Shown: positions 1,355 to 58,330 of the stretch, one piece after another
How positions within the stretch are numbered: the first letter of the stretch is position 1
Layout: every line of letters begins with the position of its first letter
From: an uncultured Collinsella sp.
Lineage (GTDB): Bacteria > Actinomycetota > Coriobacteriia > Coriobacteriales > Coriobacteriaceae
Assembly (NCBI GenBank): GCA_900541475.1
Contig: UQJV01000001.1
Span: forward strand, 34,245-98,244
Reading direction: 5' to 3'
DNA length: 64,000 bases
Notes under the pieces: model-generated
What the model saw: only the letters and a program-made list of their open reading frames with translations
The model's database searches: none
What the model was told of the DNA's origin: nothing
Made by a program: the position numbers and the translations under genes

Positions 1355-1489
1355 CGGCGTCGCGGGCCCTGGACTCTTCGCGCCGGGGGTGTTCAAGATA
1401 TGAAGGAATTATGCTCTACGAGATTTTCCTTGCCGTCTACCGAACTCCCGCGTAATATTCTTTCTTGCGCACATGAGGCGCCCAGACAT

Positions 1490-1566
1490 TGCGGGGTGGA
1501 GCAGTCTGGTAGCTCGCCGGGCTCATAACCCGGAGGTCGTAGGTTCAAATCCTGCCCCCGCGACCA
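1490..1566 (+). tRNA. initiator tRNA-fMet (anticodon CAT)
   Basis: Near-identical over its length to E. coli tRNA-fMet (CGCGGGGTGGAGCAG..GGGCTCATAACCC..GGTTCAAATCC..CCCCCGC.ACCA); three G-C pairs in anticodon stem, encoded CCA. Confidence 0.9.
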
Positions 1567-1653
1567 AGAACTTGCAGCTCGTCGGCCTAGCCGGCGAGCT
1601 TTTTTGTTATTGCGGATCATTGTTTTCGACCCAGTTCTCAACTTCCCAAACAA

Positions 1654-1711
1654 AATCTCGATCTGTAACATCTAGTCCCGATTTGGGCGTCTAGGTGTTA
1701 CAGATCGAGAT
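1654..1711. repeat. 57-58-bp palindromic element copy U1 (17-bp TIR ATCTCGATCTGTAACA / GTGTTACAGATCGAGAT, 24-nt core)
   Basis: Arms are reverse complements; core TCTAGTCCCGATTTGGGCGTCTAG related to cores of 6 other copies. Confidence 0.85.
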
Positions 1712-1856
1712 ATTTGGACAGGACGTTCTCTGTCATATCGAAGGGGGCGCTCCGTACGCCCGAACATGTACATGTCGGTAAGGTGGGAACTAGGGAACTT
1801 TACTAGGGAACTAGGAACCGCTGTTGGCTGAATCTCGCTCCGGGCGCAATTGCCCA

Positions 1857-1929
1857 TTTCCGGACATCCGCGGATAATGTCCGGAAATGGGTTGAAAATG
1901 TCCGGAAAAGGACGAAATGTCCGGAATAG
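1857..1929. promoter_or_regulatory. operator-like array A: TTCCGGACAT-N9-ATGTCCGGAA palindrome plus 2 further direct ATGTCCGGAA half-sites
   Basis: Seen directly; paralogous to arrays at 2235-2310 and 3746-3797. Confidence 0.6.
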
Positions 1930-2033
1930 TTGGGCTGTTCTACGCTTGGGTTGCCGTTATTCGGCTCTAAGTGTGGGCATGGGTTCCACTCCCATTCGGT
2001 GCTTTCGTTCCGATCATCAACTGCTCATATCAA

Positions 2034-2091
2034 AATCTTAATCTGTAACACCTAGATCTGATTTGGGCGGCCAACTGTTATAGATTAGGAC
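2034..2091. repeat. palindromic element copy U2
   Basis: AATCTTAATCTGTAACA-N24-CTGTTATAGATTAGGAC; core CCTAGATCTGATTTGGGCGGCCAA. Confidence 0.8.
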
Positions 2092-2234
2092 ATTCCGGCG
2101 GATAGCCCGCACTATGTCGAAGGAGTGTCCCGTACGTCTAATTTTGACGCATGCCAGACAGGTGTAAGGAACTCTGCTAGGGAGCTTGAGGGCTACTATT
2201 GGCCAGTTTCTATCTCGGACTCGGCGACTTCCTT

Positions 2235-2310
2235 TTCCGGACATTCGCGGGCGATGTCCGGAAAAGGGTTAAAAATGTCCGAATAACACTTAAAATGTCC
2301 CAAAAGAGCG
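2235..2310. promoter_or_regulatory. operator-like array B immediately upstream of the AlbA_2 gene (TTCCGGACAT-N9-ATGTCCGGAA plus degenerate half-sites)
   Basis: Seen directly; position suggests promoter/operator of CDS 2329-3723. Confidence 0.6.
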
Positions 2311-2328
2311 CGGCTGAAAGGCAAATGT

Positions 2329-3723
2329 ATGACTTCAGATGACATTGGAGAAATTCTCGCCAAAGGAGAGGGTGTTTCCATTGAATTTAAGCGATGCGGA
2401 AACCTTCCGGAAATCGATACGTTTGAAACGATTTGCTCTTTTGCGAATCGACAAGGAGGCAACATCCTGCTCGGGATTGTTGATGCTGAAAAATCCGACA
2501 CGGGGAAGCCTGAGGTCATTGGAATCGATTCTGCTCGTGTTGTCGAAATAGAGCGCAACATAGCGAATCGCTTGAATGATCCCAACTTCTTTAATGCTCC
2601 GCCTTCTATCGAGCTTGAGAGGGTTGAATATGAGGATAGGTTGGTTTTGCGTATCTGGGTGGTCGTCGGCGCCATCGTTCATAAATTGAAGGGTGTGGCG
2701 TATGACAGAATCGCCGATACGGATCGGAAAGTGACAACTGACACTCAGCTTGCGGCAATGTATATCCGTAAGCAGGATTACTATACCGAGCAGAGAGTCT
2801 ATCCCTATCTTGAGCTGGGGGACTTGCGTCTTGATTTGCTCGAACGGGTTAGGAGGATGGCGACAGCGAGACGTGCTAATCATCCATGGTCAGAGATGAA
2901 CGATGAAGATCTACTCCGAAGCGCAAATCTATATCTCAAAGACTACGAGACGGGTGTTGAGGGCTACACGTTTGCAGCCGCCCTTTTGCTTGGCAAAGAC
3001 AATGTGATTTCAAGTATCGCTCCGTCTTACAAAACTGATGCATACGTCCAGCGCGATGATGTGGACCGCTATGACGATCGTATTGTCGTGAAGACTAATC
3101 TTATCGAGGCGTACGATATTCTTCTGGAGTTCGCTCAGAAGCATCTGCCTGACAAGTTCTTTCTTGAGGGGACGCAATCGATTAGCCTGAGGGACGTCAT
3201 TTCGCGTGAGCTCATCGCTAACACGCTTATCCATCGCGAATACGCTAATCCTTACCCAGCAAAAATGGTTATCGATGCCGAGGGCATCCATACTGAGAAC
3301 GCGAGCCGCCCGCGATTCATCGGTGAGTTGTCGCCAAGCCATTTTAACCCGCTGCCTAAAAATCCCATCATTGCTGAGTTCTTTAGCAATATCGGTAGGG
3401 CAGAATCGTTGGGAAGTGGTACGAGAAATATGTTCAAGTACTCGTGGGCGTATGGCGGCGGTCAACCTGAGCTCGTTGAGGGCGATGTGTTTGATGCGCG
3501 TGTCCCCGTAGCGTCGAGTCTGGAGACGATTCAGAAGCTCGATGTCGATTGGGTCATTGAACGCATGCTGGAATCTTATGGGTACGTAACGGTAGCGGCG
3601 GTGGCGAATATCGCGAACGTTACCGAGAGGACGGTGCGAAGGCATATCTCCGATATGGTCGACGCCGGGGAGCTTCTGGGGGTCGGAGAGACGCGTGCAA
3701 GAAAGTTTGTCAGGGTGAAGTAA
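2329..3723 (+). CDS. AlbA_2 (Schlafen-like divergent AAA) + HATPase_c_4 + C-terminal wHTH protein ('RecG-like putative transcriptional regulator' family)
   Basis: N-term E.KR...E....ICSFANRQGGNILLGIVD matches AlbA_2 core; ISRELIANTLIHREY matches HATPase_c_4; C-terminal HTH-like VAAVANIANVTERTVRRHISDMVDAGEL. Confidence 0.75.
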   Translation: MTSDDIGEILAKGEGVSIEFKRCGNLPEIDTFETICSFANRQGGNILLGIVDAEKSDTGKPEVIGIDSARVVEIERNIANRLNDPNFFNAPPSIELERVEYEDRLVLRIWVVVGAIVHKLKGVAYDRIADTDRKVTTDTQLAAMYIRKQDYYTEQRVYPYLELGDLRLDLLERVRRMATARRANHPWSEMNDEDLLRSANLYLKDYETGVEGYTFAAALLLGKDNVISSIAPSYKTDAYVQRDDVDRYDDRIVVKTNLIEAYDILLEFAQKHLPDKFFLEGTQSISLRDVISRELIANTLIHREYANPYPAKMVIDAEGIHTENASRPRFIGELSPSHFNPLPKNPIIAEFFSNIGRAESLGSGTRNMFKYSWAYGGGQPELVEGDVFDARVPVASSLETIQKLDVDWVIERMLESYGYVTVAAVANIANVTERTVRRHISDMVDAGELLGVGETRARKFVRVK

Positions 3724-3745
3724 GGGAAGGACATGACGCCTCTCT

Positions 3746-3797
3746 TTCCGGACATTCGTGGACAATGTCCGTAATTAGGTCGAAATGTCCGGAATAG
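3746..3797. promoter_or_regulatory. operator-like array C downstream of AlbA_2 gene (TTCCGGACAT-N9-ATGTCCGTAA + GAAATGTCCGGAATAG)
   Basis: Seen directly. Confidence 0.55.
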
Positions 3798-3903
3798 CGG
3801 GGACGAGCTACATTTTGGTTGCCGAGATGCGGCCGTCCGCGCGGAAATGGTGTCACGACCCCGCCCTGTGTCTCTCGGCACTGTTCTTAACCTTTCAAAC
3901 TAG

Positions 3904-4122
3904 CATCTCGATCTGTAACATCTGGGGCCCATTTTGTCGAGTAACTGTTACAGATTTAGATCTTTCGGCAGGCTAGATTGGTTTGTCTCGATCTGTAACA
4001 GGTAGGGGTCAAAAGTGGGCCTAGCTGTTACAGATCTAGATTGTTGAGGATGGGTCGAGAGGAATGTCTCGATCTGTAACAGTAAGACCCGGTTTTGCCG
4101 AGTAACTGTTACAGATTGAGAC
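3904..4122. repeat. array of three palindromic element copies U3-U5 (3904-3962, 3985-4041, 4066-4122) separated by 22-23 bp; U4 core inverted relative to U3/U5
   Basis: Each: GTCTCGATCTGTAACA-N24-CTGTTACAGAT(C/T)(G/T)AGA(C/T); cores share GGCCC..TTTTG.CGAG.TAA. Confidence 0.85.
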
Positions 4123-4279
4123 AAACCGACGGCCGGGCTCATTCCATCCGACGCCCTGCCTCGCTCCATCCACCTGCCGCCACTTGATATTCGCCGATTT
4201 TCGTTGTGCTGTCGTGCTCCCATGCCATATCCTCTAGACAACTACGCGGCATCATCGCCGCCGCGCCTACAAGAGAGGA

Positions 4280-6316
4280 ATGTCCATGACCGCACCTGCA
4301 TCCAAGCTGCTCCAGCCCATTACAGTTGGCCCCCTTGAGCTCAAGAACCGCATTATGTTCCCGCCGCTGACCACCGGCTACGAGGAGCGTGACGGCTCCA
4401 TTGGCGAGCGCAGCCTGGCTTTTTACGAGCGCCTGGCCCGTGGCGGCGTGAGCTACATCGTCATCGGCGACGTCGCTCCCGTCATGACCGCAAGCCCCAC
4501 GCCCAAGCTGGCAACCGACGCCCAGATCCCCACGTTTAAGGCGCTGGCCGATGCCGTTCACAAGCACGGTGCCAAGGTCGCGCTGCAGCTGTTCCACCCC
4601 GAGTACGACGTGCCCGGTGTCGGCCGCATGGTCATGGGATCCATGGCTGCCGCCAAGGCCGCGCAGGAGGCCAAGGCCGCCGGCGACGAGGAGACCTTTG
4701 CCGCCAAGATGGCCGAGTCCAACGAGATTCGCAAGCAGGCATACGCCAAGCTGCACCACGATATGCAGCACTTTGTGAACGAGGCCAGCGTGGAGCAGCT
4801 CACCCAGATCAAGGAAGCCATCGCTGCCTCGGCCGCTCGCGCGCAGCAGGCCGGCATCGACGCCATCGAGGTCCACGGCGACCGCCTGGTGGGTTCGCTG
4901 TGCTCGGCCATCCTCAACCAGCGCACCGACGAGTACGGTGGCTCGTTCGAGAATCGCGTTCGCTACGCGCTCGAGGTCGTCGCTGCCATTAAGGAAGCCG
5001 CGCCGCAGCTGATGGTGGAGTACAAGCTCCCCGTGATCATGGAGAACCCCGACGGCACGCCGCGCGGCAAGGGCGGCCTGCAGCCCGACGAGGCCTGCGA
5101 GTTCGCCAAGCTGCTCGAGGGCGCCGGCATCGACATGATCCAGGTCGCGCAGGCAAACCATACCGGCAACATGGGCGATACCATTCCGCCCATGGGCGCC
5201 ATGCCCTACAACTGGACGCTGCCGGTGGCCGAGCGCGTTAAGGCCCTGGTCTCCGTGCCGGTGGCCACCGTCGGCCGTGTTGTCTCGGTCGAGGCCGGCG
5301 AAAAGATTCTGGAAGACGGCGCGGCCGACATCATCGCCTATGGCCGCTCGCTCATGTGCGACCCCGACATTGCGCTGAAGGCCGCCACGGGTGAGCCCAT
5401 CCGCGAGTGCCTCAACTGCAACAAGGGCTGCGTCGACGCGATTCAAAACCGCAAGTACATCTCGTGCGTGCTCAATGCCGAGAACGGCGACGAGGCGACC
5501 ATCGCCATTAAGCCGGGCGAGGGCGACAAGAAGATCGCCGTGGTGGGCGGCGGCATCGCCGGCCTGGAGGCCGCGCGCGTGGCGGCCAAGCGCGGCTACG
5601 ACGTGACCGTCTACGAGGCGAGCGATCACTTGGGCGGCCAGATTGTGCTGGCGGCCGCGCCTCCGCGCAAGGACGAGATCATGCGCTCCGTCGAGTACTA
5701 CGAGAAGATTCTGCCCGGCCTGGGCGTGAAGGTTGAGCTCAACCATGCCGCTACCGCTGAGGACCTCAACGCCGCCGACGCCGCGATTGTGGCCGTGGGC
5801 GCGCACGACGTGGTCATCCCTGTTCCGGGTGCCGACTCGGACAAGGTCGTCTCGAGCTGGGACGTGCTGGCCGGCAAGGTGGAGCTTACGGGCCGCGTCG
5901 CCGTCATTGGCGGTGGCCTGGTGGGCACCGAGACTGCCGAGTACCTGCTGCAGCACGGCTGCGAGGTGGCGATCGTGGAGATGCTCGACAAGATTGCCGC
6001 GGGCGAGTCCGAGACCATTCTGCCGCTGATCATGGGCGACTTTGCCGAGCACAACGTGGAGCAGCACGTGAAGACCCGCCTGACCGCCATTACCGACGAG
6101 GGCGTGGAGGCCATTCGCACCACTGAGGACGGCGCCGAGGAGCCGGTGAAAATCGCCTGCGATTACGTGGTGATGGCCGTGGGCTCCAAGGCCAACGCGT
6201 TTGACCTGGACGGCGTGACGGTGCCCATGACCTGCGTGGGCGACTGCTCGGGCGAGCGCACCGCCGATATCGCGAGCGCCATCCGCACGGCATATCACGC
6301 GGCCAACGAGCTGTAG
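4280..6316 (+). CDS. NADH:flavin oxidoreductase (OYE-like TIM barrel with 4Fe-4S Cys cluster) fused to FAD/NAD(P)-binding oxidoreductase domain (2,4-dienoyl-CoA reductase / enoate reductase family)
   Basis: 678 aa; CLNCNKGC cysteine motif after the OYE-like barrel; C-terminal KKIAVVGGGIAGLEAARVAAKRGYDVTVYE Rossmann motif and second VAVIGGGLVGTE motif. Confidence 0.8.
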   Translation: MSMTAPASKLLQPITVGPLELKNRIMFPPLTTGYEERDGSIGERSLAFYERLARGGVSYIVIGDVAPVMTASPTPKLATDAQIPTFKALADAVHKHGAKVALQLFHPEYDVPGVGRMVMGSMAAAKAAQEAKAAGDEETFAAKMAESNEIRKQAYAKLHHDMQHFVNEASVEQLTQIKEAIAASAARAQQAGIDAIEVHGDRLVGSLCSAILNQRTDEYGGSFENRVRYALEVVAAIKEAAPQLMVEYKLPVIMENPDGTPRGKGGLQPDEACEFAKLLEGAGIDMIQVAQANHTGNMGDTIPPMGAMPYNWTLPVAERVKALVSVPVATVGRVVSVEAGEKILEDGAADIIAYGRSLMCDPDIALKAATGEPIRECLNCNKGCVDAIQNRKYISCVLNAENGDEATIAIKPGEGDKKIAVVGGGIAGLEAARVAAKRGYDVTVYEASDHLGGQIVLAAAPPRKDEIMRSVEYYEKILPGLGVKVELNHAATAEDLNAADAAIVAVGAHDVVIPVPGADSDKVVSSWDVLAGKVELTGRVAVIGGGLVGTETAEYLLQHGCEVAIVEMLDKIAAGESETILPLIMGDFAEHNVEQHVKTRLTAITDEGVEAIRTTEDGAEEPVKIACDYVVMAVGSKANAFDLDGVTVPMTCVGDCSGERTADIASAIRTAYHAANEL

Positions 6317-6756
6317 TTAACTTCGCGGCCAGGCGGGGCGGTAGCACGGATCCGCCTCGCCCGACTGCGTCCCATCGGGTGTCAACCGGGGCGGGGTCTG
6401 CAAGCGCAGCAGGTCCCGCCCTTCTTGTTTTGCTCCAGTGGATGGCAATGCGCGCTAATCATGAGGAGCGAGGACGTCTACTGCCTTGCAGACCGCTCAA
6501 AATTATTAGGGGAGGGGTTAATAATTATATCCTCTATACCAAAGGACATAAAGAGATGCCAATTTTGTTGGCAAGCGAATGACGATTGGCTGCGAGCTAG
6601 CTACCAGCGTAAATAATCGATAAAGAAATGTCGTAAATTGATGCCAAATGCCCAGATGCCACCGTTGCAATTTTCAGTTAACTGTTACGCGCGAACAGCA
6701 AAATGCTACTATCTAACAAGCACGTAAGAAAGCAGATTAACGGTTAAGGCTAAGAA

Positions 6757-7161
6757 GTGGCAGGTATGTCGGAAGCAACAAGGACTCGCACGCATGCGCC
6801 CGAGGTTAGGCAGCGCGCCGTCGAGATCCTCCAAGAGGGGGTCGGTCACCGCGCCCTCGCCGCAAAGCTTGGCATTCCCCAGGCCACGGCTCGTCAGTGG
6901 GCCCGCGCATATGCCGTGGGCGGTGCCGACGCCGTGCTCAATGCGGGCGCTTGCCATCACATCTATTCGTACGACGTAAAACTCGCCGTGGTTAAGGACC
7001 GTCTGAAAAACGGCCTGACGGTTCGCGAGACCATGATCAAGTATGGGATTCCCAGCGAGTCTTCAGTCAAGGCCTGGTGCCGCCAGTATCGCGAGAGCGG
7101 TGAGTCCGCGCTGGTCGATAAGCCGCGCGGACGCAAGCCGCGCGTTAAAAAGGCGGAATAG
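6757..7161 (+). CDS. lone IS3-family OrfA-like HTH transposase fragment (no OrfB partner) in AT-rich island
   Basis: 134 aa with two HTH segments and C-terminal KPRGRKPRVKK typical of IS3 OrfA; preceded by roughly 330 bp of much lower GC content (not computed). Confidence 0.6.
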   Translation: MAGMSEATRTRTHAPEVRQRAVEILQEGVGHRALAAKLGIPQATARQWARAYAVGGADAVLNAGACHHIYSYDVKLAVVKDRLKNGLTVRETMIKYGIPSESSVKAWCRQYRESGESALVDKPRGRKPRVKKAE

Positions 7162-7171
7162 CGAACGGGAT

Positions 7172-7200
7172 GGTGCGCCCACAGGGGCGCATTTTTCTTG
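7172..7200 (+). terminator. hairpin GCGCCCACAGGGGCGC + ATTTTTCTT
   Basis: Seen in sequence. Confidence 0.5.
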
Positions 7201-7447
7201 CCGCGCCAACTTTTCGGACTGCCGCGAGCCTATCGGGACATCTTCCAACGTGGCCAATAAACCGCGCACAGTGGCCCGCGCGCCTGCCGCTGCGGTAAGG
7301 GAGCGTCACCCCTCTACTCCAATGCGGACAGACTCCTTACCCCGTACGCCTAAAACTCCCCAGTTGACCGAAAACCTGCCGCCGCCACTCCTCAATTGAG
7401 CTATAACGTTAAACAATTGCAGCGTTTTTGCATGGGGGAGTGATGGT

Positions 7448-10330
7448 ATGACGCTACTGTATTTCCTTACCCTGTTTCCGCTGGTACCGGCGCTGGGTAT
7501 GCTGTTCGCGCGCGGTGACCGCGCCCGCGATGCGGTGGGGCTCATAGGTTCCGGCATCATTATGGCGGTGACAGTTGTAGTCGCCGTCATGTTTTTTGGC
7601 ACGGGCCCGCAGAGCTTTGAGGTTGCCCCCGGCACCTCGCATGTGCTCTCGATCATCAGCTCCGCCATCGATGTCATCCTGTGCGCTGTCATCCTGTACA
7701 ACGCGTATAAATATAGGAACGTGCTTACCACAGTGCTCGGCATAGTCCAGCTGGTGGGGTCGCTCGCCTTTGCGACCATGACGCTGCCCGCGGCCGAAGC
7801 CGTCACGGCGACGCCGCTCTACCTGGACTACATGAGCGTGATCATGGTCCTCGCCGTCGGCATCGTCGGCAGCCTAATCTGCGTGTATGCCCTGGGCTAC
7901 ATGAAGGACTTCCAGGCCCACGACGAGCACGAGGCCGCGCTGCGCGGGCAGACCGCGCCCGACCGTCGCCCGCAGTTCCTGGCGCTCATGTTCCTGTTCC
8001 TCTCGGCCATGTTCGTCATCGTGACGAGCGACAACCTTGAGTGGCTGTTCTGCGGCTGGGAGATCACCACCGTGTGCTCGTTCCTCATGATTGGCTACAC
8101 GCGCACGCCCGAGGCCATCAAGAACGCCTTCACCCAGATCATCCTCAACATGCTGGGCGGTATCGCGTTTTTGGCCGGACTCATGTACCTGCACGTTAAC
8201 GGCATGCCGTTGACCATCTCGGGCATGATCGAGCTTTCCGGCGCCGGAACCGCGCAATCCGCGCTGCTGGTGATGCCGGTCATCCTGCTGTCGCTCGCCG
8301 CGCTCACCAAGGCCGCACAGATGCCGTTCCACACTTGGCTGCTCGGTGCCATGGTTGCCCCCACGCCCACGAGCGCCCTGCTGCATTCGTCCACCATGGT
8401 CAAAGCCGGCGTGTTCCTAATGGTCAAGCTGAGCCCGCTCTATGCCATCTATCCCGTGACCGGCTTTATGGTCACGAGTGTGGGTGCCATCACGTTTTTG
8501 CTCGCTGCCCTCATGGCCATCTCGCAGAGCAACGCCAAACGCGTGCTCGCGTACTCCACCATTTCCAACTTGGGCCTCATCAGTGCCTGCTTGGGTGTCG
8601 GCGCGCCCGAGGCCGTGTGGGCCGCCATCTTCCTGATCCTGTTCCACACGGTGGCCAAATCGCTGCTGTTCCTGTGCGTGGGCACCGCCGAGCATCATAT
8701 CGGCAGCCGCAATATCGAGGACATGGACGGTATGTTCAGCCGCATGCCGCACCTGACGCGTCTGATGATGCTGGGCATCATGGGCATGTTTGTGGCGCCG
8801 TTTGGCATGCTCGTGTCCAAGTGGGGTGCCCTGGTGGCGTTTGCGCAGACCGGCAACGTGCTCATGATCATGGTGCTTGCCTTTGGCTCGGCCGCGACGT
8901 TTTACTTCTGGGGCAAGTGGCTTGCCAAACTTTCGGGCGTCGACCCCACGGCTCAAAACGTTGAGGTTAATGTCCATAAGACCGAATGGATGGCGCTCAA
9001 CACCATCGCCGCGCTGCTGATTCTGTGCTGCGTGGCGTTCCCGGTTATCTCGAGCGGTCTGGTGTCGCCTTACTTGGCCATGGTGTTTGGCCGCGTGCCG
9101 TACGTTATTGGCAAGGACGCCATGTATCTGATGGTGGTTATCGTGGCGTTTATCGCCGTGGTGCTGCTGACGTCGTTCCGCGTGAGCAATAAGCCGCACG
9201 TCAACGTGTACCTTTCGGGCGTTGGAACCGAGAACTACCGTCATTTCCGCGGCTCGATGGGACACGAGGTAAAGGCCGAAAAGCGCAATTGGTACTCGGA
9301 GGACGCCCTTGGCGAGAAGCGTATTGGCCCCGCGGGTAGCGTCGTGTGCTGCAGCATTATCTTGTTTGCGCTGCTGTGCTGCGCGTGGATTGGGCCCGAG
9401 CGGCTTGCCATGAGTGCGCCCTCGGTGCTGCGCGGCAAGTATTTCGAAGGCTCGGGCGTCGTGGGCATTTTTATTGGTACCGTGGCGTTTGCCTTGCTGG
9501 CGCCGCTTGTGGGCGGTTTGATTGACGGCCTTGACCGCAAGCTGTCCGCTCGCATGCAGGGTCGCGTGGGGCCGCGTCTGCTGCAGCCCTTCTACGACGT
9601 TGCCAAGCTGCTGCGTAAAGCCCCTGCCAGCGTAAACACCATGGACGATACCTACATGGCGTGCGCGCTCATCTTTACCGCCGTGGGCGGCGGCATCTTT
9701 GTGTCGGGCTCCAACACGCTGCTGTGCGCCTTTATGGTGACGCTCGCCGCGATCTTTGTGGTGCTGGCGTCCGCCTCGACGCAAAGCCCGTTTGCCCAGG
9801 TCGGCGCCGATCGTGAGTTGCTGCAGGTTATGAGTTACGAGCCCGCCGTTCTGCTGATGAGCGTGGGCTTGTACCTTGCCACCGATAGCTTCGATTCCAT
9901 CGCCGTGACGGGGCAGTCGGCCCCCATCATCGTGTACAGCGCGCCCATTTTCCTCGCGCTGCTCGCGGTGCTCACCATCAAGCTGCGCAAGTCGCCGTTT
10001 GACCTTTCGTACTCACATCACGCGCATCAGGAGATCGTCCAGGGCGTCGCCACCGAGATGAGCGGCGGCACGCTGGCCAAGATGACCCTTATGCACTGGT
10101 GCGAGACCGTGCTGTTTTTGATGTGGGTGGGCATGTTCTTTGTCTGGGACAACCCGGTGAGCTGGGTCGTAGCCCTGGTCGTGATGGCTGCGACGTACTT
10201 TGTCGAGGTGCTGATTGACAACACCTTCGCGCGCAGCACCTGGCGCAGCTGCTTTAAGCTCGGCTGGGGCGTGGCGCTGGTATTTGGCCTGCTCAACCTT
10301 ATGCCCATCCTCGTTGACGTGTTTATTTAG
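7448..10330 (+). CDS. Ech-type hydrogenase membrane subunits EchA-like (NuoL/HyfB antiporter-like, about first 640 aa) fused in frame to EchB-like (NuoH/HycD-like, last ~300 aa)
   Basis: WLLGAMVAPTPTSALLHSSTMVKAGVFLMVKLSPL (NuoL/M/N signature); C-terminal GLIDGLDRKLSARMQGRVGPRLLQPFYDVAKLLRK (NuoH signature); single uninterrupted 960-aa ORF. Confidence 0.8.
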   Translation: MTLLYFLTLFPLVPALGMLFARGDRARDAVGLIGSGIIMAVTVVVAVMFFGTGPQSFEVAPGTSHVLSIISSAIDVILCAVILYNAYKYRNVLTTVLGIVQLVGSLAFATMTLPAAEAVTATPLYLDYMSVIMVLAVGIVGSLICVYALGYMKDFQAHDEHEAALRGQTAPDRRPQFLALMFLFLSAMFVIVTSDNLEWLFCGWEITTVCSFLMIGYTRTPEAIKNAFTQIILNMLGGIAFLAGLMYLHVNGMPLTISGMIELSGAGTAQSALLVMPVILLSLAALTKAAQMPFHTWLLGAMVAPTPTSALLHSSTMVKAGVFLMVKLSPLYAIYPVTGFMVTSVGAITFLLAALMAISQSNAKRVLAYSTISNLGLISACLGVGAPEAVWAAIFLILFHTVAKSLLFLCVGTAEHHIGSRNIEDMDGMFSRMPHLTRLMMLGIMGMFVAPFGMLVSKWGALVAFAQTGNVLMIMVLAFGSAATFYFWGKWLAKLSGVDPTAQNVEVNVHKTEWMALNTIAALLILCCVAFPVISSGLVSPYLAMVFGRVPYVIGKDAMYLMVVIVAFIAVVLLTSFRVSNKPHVNVYLSGVGTENYRHFRGSMGHEVKAEKRNWYSEDALGEKRIGPAGSVVCCSIILFALLCCAWIGPERLAMSAPSVLRGKYFEGSGVVGIFIGTVAFALLAPLVGGLIDGLDRKLSARMQGRVGPRLLQPFYDVAKLLRKAPASVNTMDDTYMACALIFTAVGGGIFVSGSNTLLCAFMVTLAAIFVVLASASTQSPFAQVGADRELLQVMSYEPAVLLMSVGLYLATDSFDSIAVTGQSAPIIVYSAPIFLALLAVLTIKLRKSPFDLSYSHHAHQEIVQGVATEMSGGTLAKMTLMHWCETVLFLMWVGMFFVWDNPVSWVVALVVMAATYFVEVLIDNTFARSTWRSCFKLGWGVALVFGLLNLMPILVDVFI

Positions 10331-10342
10331 GAGGCGGCATCC

Positions 10343-10969
10343 ATGAATCATAAAATGTCGCGCTCGCCGTGGGTTATTCATTACGACGGCTCGAGCTGCA
10401 ACGGATGCGATATCGAGGTGTTGGCCTCGCTCACGCCGCTGTTCGATGCGGAGCGCTTTGGCGTGGTCAACACCGGCAACCCCAAGCATGCGGATATCTT
10501 TTTGGTAACGGGGTCGGTCAACGCTCAGAACCTGCCCGTCGTGCGCCAGATCTACAACCAGATGCTCGAGCCCAAGTGCGTGGTGGCCTGCGGTATCTGC
10601 GCGTGTTCGGGCGGTGTGTTCCGCGATGCCTATAACGTGATCGGCGGCGTGGACCGCGCGATTCCCGTGGACGTGTACGCGCCCGGGTGCGCCATTCGCC
10701 CCGAGACGGTGATCGATGCCATCGTGGAGGCGTGCGGCATTCTGGACCAGAAGGAGGCCGTGATGCGCGCCGGCGGCGATCCGCTCACCGTGGGCGGCAC
10801 CGCTACCTGGGACGGTGGCGTTGAGCTGGGCGAGGACGGGTTTGTGGCAGCGGGGGCCGGGGCTGATGGCGCCGGTGACGCGCCTGCCGGGAAGTCCGCT
10901 GCGCCCGTCGCTGACGACGCACCTGTTGAGACGCCCACCGCGCCCGCCGCTGCAAAGGAGGCCGAGTAA
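10343..10969 (+). CDS. [NiFe] hydrogenase small subunit, NuoB-like (EchC-like), with Ala/Pro/Gly-rich C-terminal tail
   Basis: SCNGCDIE ... CGICACSGG ... APGCAIRPE Fe-S ligand pattern of NuoB/HycG family. Confidence 0.85.
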   Translation: MNHKMSRSPWVIHYDGSSCNGCDIEVLASLTPLFDAERFGVVNTGNPKHADIFLVTGSVNAQNLPVVRQIYNQMLEPKCVVACGICACSGGVFRDAYNVIGGVDRAIPVDVYAPGCAIRPETVIDAIVEACGILDQKEAVMRAGGDPLTVGGTATWDGGVELGEDGFVAAGAGADGAGDAPAGKSAAPVADDAPVETPTAPAAAKEAE

Positions 10970-11679
10970 TGCAAAAGGCTATCTATGCCACCGTCGGGAT
11001 TGACGAGCTCCTGTCACATGTGCAGGCGCTCAAGGGTGCCGGCGCGCGCTTTGTGCAAATGCACGCCGAGCGCAACGTCGACGACGGCTCGTATCGCCTG
11101 GTCTACACGTTTATCAACGTTCGTGCTGCTCAGGAGCATATCGCGCAGGACGGCAGCTATGCGATTGAGAACCTGGTGGTCGAGGGAATTGATCAGTACC
11201 AGGAGATTCCGTCCATCAGCTCGTACTATCCGGCGGTATTCCCGTTTGAAAATGAGGTCCACGACCTATTTGGTCTTGCCATCACCGACATGCAGATCGA
11301 CTTTAAGGGCTTTTTCTACCAGGTCTCGACTGCCGAGCCTATGAGCGTTATCACGCCCGAGGTGAAGGCCGCGCGCGAGAAGGCCATGAAGGTGCGTGCC
11401 GCCGCCGAGGCCAAGGCGCGCAAGGCCGCAGCCGAGAAGGTTGCCGCGGCCGCTGCGGGGGAGGGCGTTGCGGGCGCTGGCGATGCTGCGGACGCTGCCG
11501 CTCAGCCCGATGCGGCTGCCGGCTCCGATGCTCAGCACAATGAAGCTGCTGCCAAGGCGGCGCTTAAAGCCGCCGAGATGGAGGCAAAGCTCGCCGCCAT
11601 GGATCCTGAGAAAGCGGCCAAGGTCCGCGCGGCGCTTGCCGCCAAGGCCGCCCGCGACAAGCAGAAAAAGGAGGCGTAA
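10969..11679 (+). CDS. NuoC-like hydrogenase subunit (EchD-like) with roughly 100-aa Ala/Lys-rich C-terminal tail
   Basis: PFENEVHDLFGLAITD resembles NuoC E.E..D.FG motif; tail KAAREKAMKVRAAAEAKARKAAAEK... Confidence 0.65.
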   Translation: MQKAIYATVGIDELLSHVQALKGAGARFVQMHAERNVDDGSYRLVYTFINVRAAQEHIAQDGSYAIENLVVEGIDQYQEIPSISSYYPAVFPFENEVHDLFGLAITDMQIDFKGFFYQVSTAEPMSVITPEVKAAREKAMKVRAAAEAKARKAAAEKVAAAAAGEGVAGAGDAADAAAQPDAAAGSDAQHNEAAAKAALKAAEMEAKLAAMDPEKAAKVRAALAAKAARDKQKKEA

Positions 11680-11684
11680 GGTCC

Positions 11685-12773
11685 ATGGCGCATCGCTCCG
11701 TTATTCCGTTTGGCCCGCAGCACCCGGTGCTGCCCGAGCCGCTTCATCTGGACCTGGTGATCGAGGACGACCGTGTCATCGAGGCAATTCCGCAGATCGG
11801 CTTTGTGCACCGCGGACTCGAGAAGCTCACCGAAAAGCGTGATATGCATCAGTTTGGCTACATCGCCGAGCGCATCTGCGGTATCTGCGCCGTGGGCCAT
11901 AGCTACGGCTATGCCAGCGCCTGCGAGCGCATGTTCGGCATCGAGGTGCCCGGTCGCGTGCAGTATATCCGCACCATTTTGCACGAGCTTTCGCGCATTC
12001 ACTCGCACCTGCTGTGGTTGGGCCTGCTCGCCGATGCCTTTGGCTTCGAGGCGCTGTTCTATCGGTCGTGGACGCTGCGAGAGCAGATTCTCAATATCTT
12101 TGAGAGTACGTGCGGCGGTCGCGTGATTTTGTCAATCAACGAGATCGGCGGTCTTAAGCACGACATTGAGGACTCCGAGCTAGCGGGCATTGTCCAGACG
12201 CTCGACGCCATGCGTCCCGACTACGAGGCCCTGGTGCATACGTTTTTGGACGACAATAGCTGCGGCGAGCGCCTGCACGGCGTGGGCGTGATCAGCAAGA
12301 AGGACGCGCTGGAGCTTTCGATGGTCGGCCCGTTCGGCCGCGCCTCGGGCGTGGATTACGACGTGCGCATGTTTGGCGACGGTGCCTATGCGGACCTGGC
12401 CGCGTTTGAGCCCATCGTTGCTACCGATGGCGATTGCTACGCCCGCTGCCAGGTGCGTTGCGCCGAGGTCACGCAGGCCATGGACATCATCAAGGAGCTT
12501 GTGGGCAAGATTCCGCACGACGGTATCGGCGGGCGCACCAAGCTCACGCCGGCCGACGGCGCGCGCGGCGAGGTTGTGATTGAGCAGCCGCGCGGCGAGG
12601 CGTACTACTATGTGCGCGGCAACGGCACCAAGAACCTGGACCGTTTTCGCGTGCGCACGCCGACGTCGCAGAACCTGGCGGGTCTGACACATGCGCTGCA
12701 GGGTGTGCTCCTTGCCAACGTGCCCATGATTATCCTGACCATCGACCCCTGCATTAGCTGCACGGAAAGGTAG
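11685..12773 (+). CDS. [NiFe] hydrogenase large subunit, NuoD-like (EchE-like, 362 aa)
   Basis: N-terminal RICGICAVGHS and C-terminal DPCISCTER Ni-Fe ligand motifs. Confidence 0.9.
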   Translation: MAHRSVIPFGPQHPVLPEPLHLDLVIEDDRVIEAIPQIGFVHRGLEKLTEKRDMHQFGYIAERICGICAVGHSYGYASACERMFGIEVPGRVQYIRTILHELSRIHSHLLWLGLLADAFGFEALFYRSWTLREQILNIFESTCGGRVILSINEIGGLKHDIEDSELAGIVQTLDAMRPDYEALVHTFLDDNSCGERLHGVGVISKKDALELSMVGPFGRASGVDYDVRMFGDGAYADLAAFEPIVATDGDCYARCQVRCAEVTQAMDIIKELVGKIPHDGIGGRTKLTPADGARGEVVIEQPRGEAYYYVRGNGTKNLDRFRVRTPTSQNLAGLTHALQGVLLANVPMIILTIDPCISCTER

Positions 12774-13590: not shown

Positions 13591-16500
13591 ATGAGTAAGT
13601 ACACGAGGGGTCTCTTGGCGGTGATACTTGCCGTAGTGCTTGTGTTGCCGGCTGCAGCATTTGCCATGCTGCCCGAGGCCAACGCCAGGTCCAGCACCGG
13701 AATGGACGGACCGACAATGACCGGAAAGGTCGTCGACCCCGACACCAGCAACTACTGGAAGTTCTGGGCCGGCGGCTATAACGGAAAGGAAGTAACAACT
13801 CAAAACGTCGGCCGAATCTGGACCGACAAGACGGTCAAGGCAGTCGAGAGCGGGGATTCGGATTTCCTGACCACGCTGTCTGCCATCTCTTCGACATCCG
13901 ATACGACGATTTCCGGCAAGCCGCTCGACATCGTGATGGTGCTGGATGCTTCTGGCTCGATGGACGACCCTATGGGCACGGGCGACAACACAAAGCGCAT
14001 CGATGCGCTAAAGACGGCCGCCAATACCTTTATTGACGCCATCGCCGCGCAAAACCAAAGCTTTACAGATGCGTCCAAGCAGCATCGGGTTGCCATCGTA
14101 AAGTTTGCGGGCAAGAAGAAGACTGATAAGGTCGGCAACGACACTTATCGTGATGGACGGTACACCTACAACTACTCGCAGACCATGAAGAACCTGACGT
14201 CCTGCAAGGGCAAGGATGCGGATAGCCTCAAGGACACGGTTGGCAACATCAATCCTGCCGGTTCCACGCAAGCCGACTATGGTCTGGAGCTGGCCGAGAA
14301 CATTACTATTAATTCTGGTCGTGCAGATGCCAAGAAGATTGTTGTGTTCTTTACCGATGGCTCACCTACGAGTTCAAGTGGATTCCAGGCAAGTGTTGCC
14401 GATAGCGCCATCGCTAGCGCCAAGAGCCTCAAAGCTAATGGTGCCGACATTTATACTATTGGCATCTTTAACGGAGCAAATCCCAGCGCCGACCCCACAG
14501 CTGAAGGCACGAGCAAAGTGAACAAGTTCATGCATGCTGTGTCGAGCAACTATCCTGGTGCCACGTCAAGCATCTCTTTCTGGGGCGAGTGGGTCATCGA
14601 CTATGGCACGCGTGCGGAAAACTCCGACTACTACAAGTCGGCAACCAGCGCCTCTGAGCTCGAGAAAATCTTCGAAGAGATCTCGGGAAGCATTATCCAA
14701 ACTGGTTACCCGACAGAAGTTCACAGCGGTTATGGCGAGCATAAGTCCGGCTACATCACGTTTACCGATGAGCTGGGCGACTTTATGCAGGTCGACAACT
14801 TTACGTCCGTCGTGTATGGTGGCGAGACGTTTGAAAAACCGTCAAAGAAGCCCGAGGGTAACGTCGACACCTACACATTTTCTGGTGCCGCTGCGAACCT
14901 GGTCATCACCGTTCAGCATGCCGAAGAGGGCAAGCCTCAGACCGGCGATATCGTAACGGCTAAGATTCCTGCGTCGCTGATTCCGCTGCGCCACTTTAAG
15001 ATCACCGACGGCGTTCTTACGGTCGACAATACTGAGCCCATCCAGGTGAACTACACCTCGAGCGTTAAGAAAGAAGCGCTCGATAACCTCTTTACGCCCA
15101 AGAACGTAAAGGGGCTCGAGGACTACATCAAGAGCAATACGACCACCGCGGAGAACGGTTCCAAGACCGTTAACTTCTACGCGAACAAGTGGAACGCTGG
15201 CGCGCTGGGCGATACGATCGCGAACTTTGAGCCTGCCGACACCAACCGCTATTACTATTTCCAGAAGCAGACCCCCATTTACACGGATAAGAACTGCACG
15301 ACGCCTGCAACGGGTTCGCTGCCTGTCGGCAGCAAGTATTACTACAAGGATGAGTTTGAGGCGCTGGGCGCAGACGGAAAGGCCGAATCCCGTACTGCTG
15401 TTATTGAGTTTGCCGGTGAAGACGCTGCGAACTTTGAGGGCGCCGTCGTGCGCGACGCGAGTGGAAACCTGTCGTTTAGCAAGGGAACCGCACGTCTGGC
15501 CTTTATTGATGAGCTCCACACCACCAAGGAGAGCGTGGGCGGTAACCTCACCGGCACCGCGGCCGACGTGCTCAATCCCAAGTGGAACAACACGTCTGCC
15601 AAGTCGAACGCCACGGAGGTTGACGTTCACTTGGGCAACAACGGCAAGATCAGCTATAAGTACGACATGACGCCGACAACGGTGGATACCAAGGCCAGCT
15701 TTGGCCTAACCAAGGTGCTCGAGGGCCGCGAGTGGACGGATGAGGACACGTTTGAGTTTGGGCTGACGTCCGAGGATAACGCCCCGATGCCCGCGTCCGC
15801 GATCGCGACTGCGACCGAGGGCAACACGGCTATCGATTTCGGTGAGATCACCTACGCCGAGCCCGGCACGTATGTCTACAAAGTCAGCGAAAAGAACGCC
15901 GGGACCACGGTTGACGGCATCGCCTACAGCAAGAACGTCGCGGAGATTACCGTGACGGTGACGCCCAACAAGAAGGGCGAGCTGAGCGCTGATGTGAATG
16001 TAGCCTGGAGCGAAGCCGGCGTGACCGAGTTCAGGAACACCTACACTACGAATCCTGTTGAGTCCAGCGTTACCGACAAGATTGACGTAACCAAGTCCCT
16101 GACCGGGCGCGACCTTACGGCCGGCGAGTTCAGCTTTGAGTTGCGCGAGGTTAAGGGCGAGGACTCCGAGCTTATTGAGACCGTTGCGAACGCCGCCGAC
16201 GGCAAGGTGACGTTCAGCCCCATCAGGTACACCGAGATCGGCCAGCACACCTACACGCTGCACGAGGTTAAGGGCAACGCCGGTGGCATCACCTACGACG
16301 ATACGGTCCACACCATCGTGACGACTATCAGCGATAACGGCAAGGGCCAGCTGGTGGCTACGCACGAGATAAAGGGCGCCGAGGGCGCCAAGAGCATCGA
16401 GTTCAAGAACGCATACAATCTGACCCCTAAGAGCTCCAGCGTCACTGACCAGGTCAAGGCGACTAAGGTCCTGACTGGACGCGAGCTTACTGCCGGCGAG

Positions 16501-19500
16501 TTCTCCTTCGAGCTCGTCGAGGGCGAGGACGCCAAGGTCGTCGCCACCGGTACTAACAATGCCGAAGGCAAGATTACGATGAGCCCCATCGAGTACACTG
16601 CTGCCGGCAAGCACACCTATACGCTGCGCGAGGTCAAGGGCAACGCTGGCGGTATCACCTACAGCGATGCCAAGTTCACCATCGAGACCACCATCACGGA
16701 CAACGGTGACGGTACGCTCAGTGCCACGCATGTTCTGAAGGACGTCAAGGTTGCCGAGTTCAAGAACTCCTACAACGTGACCCCCGAGAGCTCCAGCGTC
16801 ACCGACCAGATCACCGCGACCAAGTTCCTGACCGGCCGCGACCTCAAGGACGGCGAGTTCTCCTTCGAGCTCGTCGAGGGCGAGGGCGAGGGCGCCAAGG
16901 TCGTCGCCACCGGCACCAACAATGCCGAAGGCAACATCACGATGAGCGCCGTGAAGTACGACAAGGCCGGCAAGCACACCTACACGCTGCGCGAGGTCAA
17001 CGGCGGAACCACCAGCAAGGGCATCACCTACAGCACCGCCGAATACACCATCGAGACCACCATCACCGACAAGGGCGACGGTACGCTCAGTGCCACGCAT
17101 GTCCTGAAGGGCACCGAGCCCGCCGAGTTCAAGAACTCTTACAGTGTGACCCCGATCGACGCAGAGCTCGACTTTGGCCTGAGCAAGGCTGTCGATGGTC
17201 GCGCTTGGACGGACTCCGACGAGTTCAGCTTTACCATTACCGCCGCCGAGGGCACCCCGCTGCCCGACCCCGCAACCGTGACCGTGAACAAGAAGGACGC
17301 GAAGGACGGCATCGCCGCCATCAACTTCGGCAAGATCCGCTACACGGCTGCCGGAACCTACAAATATGAGATCCGCGAGAACGCGGGCAACGCGGCGGGC
17401 ATGACGTATGACGGACATGTCGCGACCGCCGAAGTGACCGTGACCGAGAACGGCGAGGGCGTCCTGACCGCCAACGTCACCAAGAAGGAAAGCGGACGTT
17501 TTACCAACACGTACCGCACTGAGCTCGATTACGCCGCGGCCGGCGGCCTTAAGCTCAGCAAGACCCTCTCCGGACGTCCCATGACCGAGGGTCAGTTCAC
17601 CTTTACCGTGACGCCCGCCGACGAGGCCTCTGCCATCGCGCTCGGCCTGCACGAGGGCGCCAACGTGTACAAGTCCCCTGCAACGGCAGAGGCAACGGTT
17701 GGTCTGATCGACATCCTGGCTGGCCATGAGGTCAAGTTTACGCAGGCTGACGCGGGCAAGACCTTTACATACACCGTTGCCGAGAAGAACGACGGCCAGC
17801 CCGGTTACACCTATGACGACGCCGAGCGCACCGTGACGATCGCTATCGCCGACGATGGCGCCGGCACGCTCACTGCTACCACGACCGTTACTGGCAACCC
17901 CGACAAGGGAACGCCGGTAACCGAGTACAAGACTGGTGCCGCTGCGGTCGAGAGCGCTGTGGTCCCGTTCGTCAACAGCTATAGCGCCACGACCGATGCA
18001 CCTGGTGGTGCCGTTGCTCAGGTCGTTGCCACCAAGACCCTGACCGGTCGTCCACTGGCCGACGGCGAGTTCTACTTTGGCATCGCCTACGCGGGCGAGA
18101 CGGAAGCCATCAGCGGTACGCCGACGTTCAACTATAACGGCCAGGTGAGCTTTGGCGCTCTGCATTACACGACCGATATGCTTGCCGACCTGGTAAGCAC
18201 CGGGCGCGCCATCCGCACCGACGCGGACGGCAAGCTTGCGTGGACTATCAACTACACAGCCTTTGAGTACACGAACTCGCTGGCCGGCATGGGCATTACC
18301 GCCGCTAAGTCGAGCTTTAGCTTTAAGGTCATCGTTATCGATAACGGCGACGGCACCCTGACGGCGACGACCGACTACGGTGATGCCAAGCCCGTGTTCG
18401 AGAACGTCTACGGCGCCGAGGCCGTCTATGCCACGCTCGCCGGCACCAAGAAGCTCCAGGCAGACAAGGGCCTGACCCCGGCCGACATCGCGGGCAAGTT
18501 CACCTTTACCGTGACTGCCGATGAGGCGGGCGCCCCGATGCCCGAGCATACGACTGCGACCAACGACACGGCCGGCAACGTGGACTTTGGCAAGATTCGC
18601 TTTACGCTCGAGGACCTCAACCGCGCCCTGGGCGTGACGACCGATGTGACCGATAAGGTCGAGGCAGACGAAGCTGACGAAGCCGAGGCCGACGCCGACG
18701 CTGATGCCAACGCCGACGAGTCCAGCGACGAGTCCGAGCCCGCAGCCCCCACCGCTCCGCGCTCGCACACCTTTACCTATACGGTGACCGAATCCGGTAG
18801 CGCCCCTGGCGTGACCAATGACGCCAACACCGCGCGCAAGGTTTCCTACACCGTGACCGATGACGGCGCCGGACATCTGAGCGTCGTGCGCAACGGCGAC
18901 GACGGTGCCGCCTTCACGTTCACCAACACGTACGGCGTGGCACCCACCGATTCTTCCGTGACCGATCAGGTCAAGACGGTTAAGCGTCTGACCGGACGCG
19001 ACCTTGCAGCTGGCGAGTTCACGTTTGAGCTGCTCGAGGACGGCGTGACTGTCGCTAGTGGCACCAACGACGCCAACGGTAACGTTACGCTGAGCCCGAT
19101 TCGCTACGAGGCGCCCGGTACGCACACGTACACGCTGCGCGAGGCTTGCCCCAACGCGCTCGGCCTGTACAAGGGTGTCACCTATGACGGCACGACCTAC
19201 ACCGTCGTGACCACCGTCTCCGACAACGGCGACGGCACGCTGACCGCGTCGCACAAGCTCGAGGGAACTACCGAGTCGGCTGGCTTTACCAACAAGTATC
19301 ACGCCATGCCCACGCAGGTTTCCATCGGCGCCATCAAGGTACTCGAGGGACGCGAACTCAAGAAGGACGAGTTTAGCTTTAAGCTCGTTGGCGAGGACGT
19401 CGAGTCCACCGTCACCAACGATGCCGACGGCAAGATCAACTTCGACAAGTTCGAGTACGACGAGCCCGGTACGTACGTCTACACCATCAGCGAGGTCAAG

Positions 19501-58192: not shown

Positions 58193-58330
58193 GTCTCAAT
58201 CTGTAACACCTAGCGGGCTAAATCGCCTCTACCTGTTATAGATCGAGACAAACCGTAGAGGGCCGCCCGAACAATCTCAATCTGTAACACCGGGCCCGGT
58301 TTTGGCGGCCTAACTGTTACAGATCGAGAC
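58193..58330. repeat. two palindromic element copies U6 (58193-58249, inverted core) and U7 (58275-58330)
   Basis: GTCTCAATCTGTAACA-N24-CTGTTATAGATCGAGAC and TCTCAATCTGTAACA-N24-CTGTTACAGATCGAGAC. Confidence 0.85.

Follow-up and report, generated by a model that had tools for sequence, protein, structure and literature searches.

Bilirubin reductase (BilR) carries out the long-sought gut step from bilirubin to urobilinoids, a step that bears on jaundice, on enterohepatic bilirubin recycling and on pigment gallstones. We analyzed a stretch of 64,000 nucleotides from an uncultured Collinsella sp. (contig UQJV01000001.1, positions 34,245 to 98,244; hereafter the window), in which an open reading frame (ORF) at 4280..6316 of the + strand probably codes for the long form of BilR known from the Collinsella aerofaciens group. 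We place the probability of this reading, which is drawn from sequence comparison, at about 0.85. The gene is already catalogued, because it is present in the supplement of Hall 2024 (PMC10769871) and has been named in RefSeq; the finding is an ordinary one, and the locus adds nothing new on the identity of the enzyme. The modest practical points are that the Collinsella enzyme appears to be of the insertion type, that bilR and the gene of its partner enzyme, bilV, are unlinked in the C. aerofaciens group, and that Collinsella BilV still goes under a generic public name.

The gene and its predicted product

The bilR frame, 678 codons plus stop when counted from the first ATG, occupies exactly the coordinates given by an earlier reading of the same DNA (the first-pass annotation). 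The gene is genuine, not an ORF that GC-rich DNA has produced by chance, because its product contains Pfam domains and cofactor motifs and because the GC content at third codon positions (GC3) is high in this frame (0.877, with an overall GC content of 66%). An antisense ORF of 719 codons (4139..6298) was considered as a gene and rejected; it has no Pfam match and a GC3 of 0.669, and is a GC-rich shadow. Translation of bilR likely starts at the second ATG, at 4286, giving a product of 676 aa, since the putative Shine-Dalgarno-like sequence AGAGAGGA (4271..4278, + strand) lies directly against the first ATG, whereas its distance of 7 nt suits the second, and since the public clusters hold proteins of 676 aa. 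The exact 676-aa product is already present in the public protein collection.

The gene is predicted to be monocistronic, because it is followed by its own intrinsic-terminator-like hairpin (6388..6422, + strand; 14 bp, 10 of them GC, then a T-run), 72 nt past the stop codon. No gene for a coenzyme A (CoA) ligase, a transporter or a second old yellow enzyme (OYE) was found near bilR by Pfam, NCBIfam and tblastn searches within the window. The first-pass annotation had called the gene stand-alone, and the hairpin and these searches agree with that description. Profile scans of the window proteins likewise found no regulator, no flavodoxin bilS and no bilQ adjoining bilR, and Pfam and NCBIfam scans of the same proteins found no bai genes and no fatty-acid or acyl-CoA genes near it.

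The product had been assigned to the class III OYE family, related to 2,4-dienoyl-CoA reductase (DCR), and both this assignment and the proposed OYE-4Fe4S-FAD build are confirmed by Pfam matches and motifs. The N-terminal OYE domain, a flavin mononucleotide (FMN) triosephosphate isomerase (TIM) barrel, is encoded at 4304..5392 (+ strand; aa 9-371) and matches PF00724 (Oxidored_FMN) with E=1e-45; strands and helices alternate over this region in the structure model. It is followed at 5408..5467 (+ strand) by a predicted [4Fe-4S] motif, C377-x2-C380-x3-C384-x11-C396, read from the sequence CLNCNKGCVDAIQNRKYISC, and the Cys-rich stretch aligns with the matching Cys motif of the DCR structure 1PS9. 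The C-terminal Rossmann domains for flavin adenine dinucleotide (FAD) and NAD(P)H are encoded at 5531..6223 (+ strand; aa 418-648), with matches to PF07992 (Pyr_redox_2, aa 418-648, E=7e-31), PF00070 and PF13450 and with dinucleotide-binding motifs GGGIAG at 423 and GGGLVG at 544. The four Cys and both GxGxxG motifs are invariant across 26 aligned homologues, and the four cluster Cys are kept by nearly all full-length 50%-identity representatives.

The assignment to BilR rests on profile matches, on an active-site motif and on public records. The NCBIfam model NF045599 (bilirubin reductase, long form; cut-off 750 bits) matched with 1042.4 bits (E=0), residues 10-678 aligning with profile positions 1-641 of 641, and NF045592 (bili_reduct_N, the BilR barrel; cut-off 425) was passed with 526 bits. 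The motif HGDR is present at aa 199-202 (codons at 4874..4885, + strand), its D and R being the proposed proton-donor pair; it defines the BilR clade, and a DR-to-AA mutant of the Ruminococcus gnavus BilR is inactive (PMC10769871). Over the first 399 residues of this validated BilR, the N-terminal portion taken for comparison from the supplement of PMC10769871, the Collinsella protein shows 55.5% identity, and its HGDR is in register with residues 164-167 there. For a family alignment, 1.8 billion proteins were searched as representatives at 50% identity, of which the best 150 were taken. Those with HGDR are closest to the query, whereas the OYEs outside BilR carry an HG-AHG-Y loop three residues longer. 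The HGDR loop is three residues shorter than both the HG-AHG-Y and the AHAH loops, in agreement with the published description. AHAH, the motif by which the vinyl reductase BilV is recognized, was sought across the whole protein and is absent.

Public records point the same way. Hall 2024 accepted as BilR those proteins that had an hmmsearch E<1e-100, the HGDR motif, only PF00724 and PF07992 as domains, and at least 50% of the length of the Clostridium symbiosum BilR (PMC10769871). The present protein, of 676-678 aa, has the required domains, motif and length; its remaining Pfam matches are to Rossmann-type families that overlap the PF07992 stretch. The Collinsella 'Long' BilR entries in the supplementary table of that study begin MTAPASKLLQPITVGPLELKNR... 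and are identical to this ORF from codon 3. Furthermore, the 90% cluster of this protein has 24,145 member sequences, and one of them, RefSeq WP_229026381.1, is named 'bilirubin reductase, long form [Collinsella aerofaciens]'. The first-pass annotation had stated that the substrate could not be inferred; this view is overturned by the NF045599 score of 1042 against 750, by HGDR, by the 'Long' listing of Hall 2024 and by the RefSeq name.

The protein might instead be a generic class III OYE acting on an unrelated substrate, such as 2,4-dienoyl-CoA, enoates, 3-oxo-delta4/delta6 bile acids in the manner of BaiCD/BaiH, or xenobiotics. Its fold and domain order equal those of DCR and NCR, the BaiCD model NF041087 is the third-best NCBIfam model, and Coriobacteriia encode many substrate-specific reductases, which we count in favor of this possibility. 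Nevertheless, the BaiCD model scored only 423.9 bits against a cut-off of 825 and the mycofactocin OYE2 model 337 against 793, and NamA, NemA and other OYE models were far under their cut-offs, whereas both BilR models passed. The Tyr of the HG-AHG-Y loop, at the position of the proton donor Tyr166 in DCR/FadH, is deleted or replaced here by the shorter HGDR loop, in the alignment to 1PS9 as in the family alignment. BaiCD and BaiH belong to the same class III OYE family of gut anaerobes, but the N-terminal third of the protein aligns poorly with BaiCD and no bai operon surrounds bilR; nor are CoA ligase or acyl-CoA genes found nearby. A generic OYE is consequently a highly improbable reading, the least probable of those considered here.

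Predicted chemistry and the inserted hairpin

The long BilR of R. gnavus (Mediterraneibacter gnavus CC55_001C, WP_009244284.1; PMC10769871) shares the order of OYE barrel, [4Fe-4S], FAD and NAD(P)H domains, matches the same NCBIfam model and is likewise encoded by a solo gene with neither bilS nor bilQ. The Collinsella protein differs from it by 28 additional residues and by its actinobacterial host of 60% GC. The short-form BilR of C. symbiosum and Clostridioides difficile has a homologous HGDR TIM barrel, common to both forms, but no Fe-S, FAD or NAD(P)H domains; it depends on the flavodoxin-like BilS, frequently along with BilQ, a MarR regulator. Genes for BilS and BilQ are absent here. Since electron-input domains are built into the long form, we would expect the Collinsella enzyme to do without BilS. 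Among solved structures the closest relatives are 1PS9 and 6QKG (phmmer E=3e-77; Foldseek template modelling score 0.78), which also match best by sequence in the PDB. They have the same cofactor set and a presumed NAD(P)H to FAD to [4Fe-4S] to FMN path, but they are about 26% identical to the query, act on CoA thioesters and lack the capping insertion described below.

By analogy with the homologous structure 1PS9 and with published AlphaFold3 models of BilR, from which the electron path is taken, NAD(P)H would reduce FAD in the C-terminal Rossmann domains, and the [4Fe-4S] cluster (Cys377/380/384/396) would relay electrons singly to the FMN of the N-terminal TIM barrel. A hydride would then go from reduced FMN to a C=C bond of the bound bilin, while the Asp201-Arg202 pair of the HGDR loop would supply the proton. 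To judge from BilR of other species, the methine bridges of bilirubin would be reduced to give (divinyl-)urobilinogen. The product of BilR has been revised by two 2026 preprints, according to which BilR reduces the methine bridges and the vinyl groups need BilV (PMC13252198; 10.64898/2026.06.10.731317). Russell et al. describe conversion of mesobilirubin to urobilinogen by BilR (10.64898/2026.06.10.731317), and Jiang et al. report that biliverdin is also accepted and speculate that BilR subtypes differ in substrate preference (PMC13252198).

Compared with the BilR of R. gnavus and with a proteobacterial BilR (Algorimicrobium), the Collinsella protein has 28 extra residues between the motifs HPEYDV and HHDM. 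Their position is approximate, within aa ~116-155 (4625..4744, + strand). The insertion has no counterpart in 1PS9, to which query residues 108-161 remain unaligned, and the HGDR representatives are bimodal at this site, with a segment of either 62 or 34 residues. Helices 112-131 and 135-166 (676-aa numbering) form a long hairpin directly after barrel strand 3 in the structure model (aa ~114-168 in 678-aa numbering); the insertion makes up part of this predicted helical hairpin, and the residues flanking it complete the rest. The hairpin is predicted to sit in the capping region of the OYE active site. The protein thus seems to belong to the 'BilR-insertion' clade, which is named in PMC13252198 with reference to Dufault-Thompson et al. 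2024 and is distinguished from basal and short BilR by an extra sequence region.

An insertion in the active-site capping region, absent from the validated R. gnavus enzyme, could mean that this member of the BilR clade has a different physiological substrate: mesobilirubin (after BilV), biliverdin, conjugated bilirubin or another linear tetrapyrrole. The subtype preferences raised by Jiang et al., together with the use of biliverdin and of mesobilirubin in the two preprints, are in line with this possibility. We consider it unlikely, given that conservation is high both in the HGDR loop and across the remainder of the barrel (55% identity to the R. gnavus BilR) and that the neighborhood gives no hint of another pathway; moreover, all of the alternatives are still reductions of bilin methine bridges and would leave the enzyme class unchanged.

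Several points weigh against the assignment of this gene as a bilirubin reductase. The assays in the papers cited here (PMC10769871, PMC13252198) cover only BilR from three species, R. gnavus, C. symbiosum and C. difficile, together with the bilR-bilV operon of F. intestinalis. In these papers no BilR of the insertion clade is assayed singly, the clade of the F. intestinalis BilR not having been checked. The word 'aerofaciens' does not appear in the main text of the preprint of Russell et al. (10.64898/2026.06.10.731317). The insertion-clade label comes from our own alignments and not from the publication that defines the clade (ISME J 2024, wrae242). The structure model has a predicted local distance difference test (pLDDT) score below 50 at residues 377-405, around the Fe-S loop, and a scan for sigma-70 promoters upstream of bilR detected none.

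bilV, the partner gene, at a separate locus

BilV has the same three-domain class III OYE fold as BilR, acts in the same pathway and in Collinsella likewise has a gene that stands alone. It shares only 33% identity with the present BilR, however, carries VHAAHAHG, three residues longer, where BilR has VHGDR, and reduces the C3 and C18 vinyl groups instead of the methine bridges. The Collinsella BilV has 649 aa, with VHAAHAHG; its cluster has 19,161 members, against 24,145 for BilR, and at NCBI it is still labelled with the generic name 'NAD(P)/FAD-dependent oxidoreductase'.

We searched the window and 84 bilR loci by tblastn with a fragment of Collinsella BilV printed in the supplement of Jiang et al. 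(PMC13252198), and the sole match was bilR itself (33%). Neither the 64-kb window nor the DNA up to 10 kb from bilR in the 84 loci thus yielded a bilV. No second OYE paralogue stands next to bilR, either by this search or by tblastn with BilR over the window and 80 loci. Three extra hits, in loci L056, L057 and L077, were rejected as paralogues, as they belong to a NuoG/GltD-like Fe-S flavoprotein in alternative island cargo. P0201, alone among the family representatives in having AHAH, was rejected as a proxy for BilV; its relatives are environmental OYEs (Bathyarchaeia, Carboxydothermus, Zixibacteria), and its AHAH is probably coincidental.

The gene bilV itself is found alone in five independent places (L085-L089), flanked by rlmL/kup on one side and on the other by an AlbA_2-HATPase_c_4 gene, beyond which giant surface proteins are encoded, with no bilR within 10 kb. 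Its neighborhood is of a variable type like that of bilR, yet it is a separate locus. In the C. aerofaciens group, therefore, bilR and bilV are unlinked solo genes, found together in 0 of 80 bilR loci and 0 of 5 bilV loci. Of 1058 Collinsella genomes, 92.5% encode BilV according to Russell et al., who describe bilR and bilV as adjacent in many (10.64898/2026.06.10.731317), and our observation qualifies the statement on adjacency, at least for the C. aerofaciens-like genomes sampled. According to PMC13252198, bilV accompanies bilR in 66% of the species of the insertion clade, and frequently the two share a neighborhood. This linkage is not seen here; it is a tendency of the clade and no defining feature. 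Most of the genomes with genes for both BilR and BilV appear to be those of Collinsella.

A speculative idea, which we regard as rather improbable, is that the inserted hairpin changes the substrate order or the partner dependence of the Collinsella BilR relative to that of R. gnavus, for example by making it prefer mesobilirubin from the unlinked BilV, or by docking to BilV. If so, Collinsella would run a 'vinyl first, then methine' pathway from two separately regulated loci.

A conserved gene beside a variable island

Relatives of bilR were sought in one genome per GTDB species; at least 588 loci encode one, and the best 80 were examined. All of these best 80 species representatives are Collinsella (C. 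aerofaciens and others) and have 99% amino-acid identity to the query. Flanks could be compared in 69 loci with enough downstream sequence and in 59 loci upstream. The downstream tandem helix-turn-helix (HTH) ORF and hydrogenase-like operon, described below, are kept in 58 of the 69, and a tRNA segment (~1388-1713) lies directly upstream of bilR in 51 of the 59. The GC3 of bilR, 0.877, is the highest in the neighborhood, where neighboring genes range from 0.71 to 0.83 and the island gene has 0.548. In the survey by Russell et al., which covered 1058 Collinsella genomes, about 88% or more had BilR (10.64898/2026.06.10.731317). We conclude that bilR is a genus-core gene of Collinsella and not a strain accessory, because the best 80 loci keep it at 99% identity with mostly collinear flanks while only the adjacent island varies.

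The first-pass annotation had correctly placed the gene between a repeat island (~1642-4133) and an AT-rich insertion-sequence remnant (here the ORF of the transposase HTH type at 6757-7161), and had taken this position as consistent with an accessory acquired function. At the strain level this second claim does not stand, in view of the 99% identity among the best 80 of at least 588 loci, the synteny (58/69 and 51/59) and the high GC3. The same annotation had named strict vertical conservation with a clear housekeeping role as the finding that would refute it; conservation at the genus level is essentially what was observed, although the role is not a housekeeping one.

The idea that bilR is a recently acquired, strain-variable gene belonging to the adjacent island draws on real features of the locus. 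The gene lies ~0.5-2.7 kb downstream of tRNA-Met, beside an insertion hot spot, and is followed by the transposase-type HTH ORF; in 11 of the 69 loci homology ends exactly at the bilR stop codon and gives way to other genes, for example a DUF4143 ATPase in L007; and relatives in other genera of the Coriobacteriales stand in different chromosomal contexts. However, all of the best 80 loci keep the gene at 99% identity with mostly collinear flanks, its GC content of 66% and GC3 of 0.877 are typical of host genes or above them while the island cargo has 0.548, the cargo differs among strains where bilR stays, and Russell et al. report a frequency of about 88% or more. Recent acquisition with the island is, on this evidence, very unlikely. 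An ancient lateral origin of bilR is plausible. In relatives of 86% and 79% identity, of which the second is named Paratractidigestivibacter, the gene stands singly among housekeeping genes in an unrelated context, and the next relatives are 71-75% identical, one of them assigned by NCBI to a Lachnospiraceae metagenome-assembled genome.

The left anchor of the locus is a conserved tRNA-Met(CAT) gene (1490..1566, + strand), likely an integration landmark for the variable island. A 92-aa minus-strand ORF at 1393-1671 was considered as a truncated coaX and rejected, the segment being occupied by this + strand tRNA. The repeat island extends upstream of bilR over about 1642-4133. Just 5' of bilR, at 3892..4133, it contains three tandem palindromic units of ~81 nt (TCTCGATCTGTAACA...TGTTACAGATCGAGA), and other copies are found at 1642-1722, 2022-2102 and 58196-58327. 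Each unit has 24-nt arms, AAAATCTCGATCTGTAACATCTAG and CTAGGTGTTACAGATCGAGATATT, around a loop of ~15 nt, and the units form tandem arrays in intergenic DNA. The core has 13 matches in the window against 0.8 expected, and the Rfam search of the unit matched no family. The palindrome looks like a Collinsella repeat of the REP (repetitive extragenic palindrome) or MITE (miniature inverted-repeat transposable element) type. It was also considered as an operator specific to bilR, an idea that we rejected in view of the copies at 1642, 2022 and 58196-58327 and of a copy number upstream of bilR that differs among strains.

Between the palindromic units lies a strain-specific, low-GC segment of 2.2 kb (1723..3891; ~50% GC), which is not part of bilR and which, with its AlbA_2 cargo, is shared by none of 59 comparable loci. 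Its ORF at 2329-3723 (GC3 0.548) has an AlbA_2/Schlafen domain (PF04326) and a weak PADLOC match to the Aga_SIR2 model (E=2e-5), and a second palindrome family, TTCCGGACAT-N9-ATGTCCGGAA, occurs in the island at 1858, 2235 and 3746. Other strains carry different cargo at the same site (L073, L024, L039, L042 and L053, as well as L056, L057 and L077); in the last three, an 8-kb cluster (about 1400-9600) encodes FAD_binding_2, NuoG-GltD-like, NuoF-like and FMN_red proteins with a PucR regulator. No integrase was seen at the hot spot. The site downstream of tRNA-Met is a true insertion hot spot, and bilR lies outside it and is constant.

Downstream of bilR, the 134-aa tandem-HTH ORF (6757..7161, + strand) had been taken for the remnant of an insertion sequence (IS). 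It matches Pfam HTH_28, HTH_23 and HTH_Tnp_1 and resembles the N-terminus of IS3/IS630/IS481 transposases, without a catalytic domain, and all NCBIfam transposase models score far under their cut-offs. It has AT-rich intergenic DNA on its 5' side and its own terminator-like hairpin (7172-7193), and its position is kept in 58 of the 69 loci. Rather than the relic of a recent IS, it seems to be a DNA-binding protein that has been domesticated and stands alone.

A four-gene operon at 7448-12773, next to bilR in most Collinsella, encodes a 960-aa fusion of NuoL/Mrp-antiporter-like and NuoH-like parts, a NuoB-like protein, a NuoC-like protein and a protein like NuoD or the [NiFe] large subunit, and resembles a minimal group-4 (Ech/Mbh-type) membrane-bound hydrogenase or a related energy-converting complex. 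It is followed at 13591-19833 by the gene of a 2080-aa LPXTG-anchored surface protein with at least nine streptococcal-pilin isopeptide-linkage repeats (369-nt tandem repeats at 16398-17153), which diverges more between strains (~70-85% at the nucleotide level) than the flanking genes (92-95%). A PP2C-type phosphatase gene (167-1354) stands on the left-hand side of the tRNA-Met segment, a position at which only 2 of 59 related loci have it; in L007 the upstream genes are instead those for a type III pantothenate kinase and folP/folK. A second rearrangement breakpoint is placed at ~1388, because the left-hand genes differ between loci.

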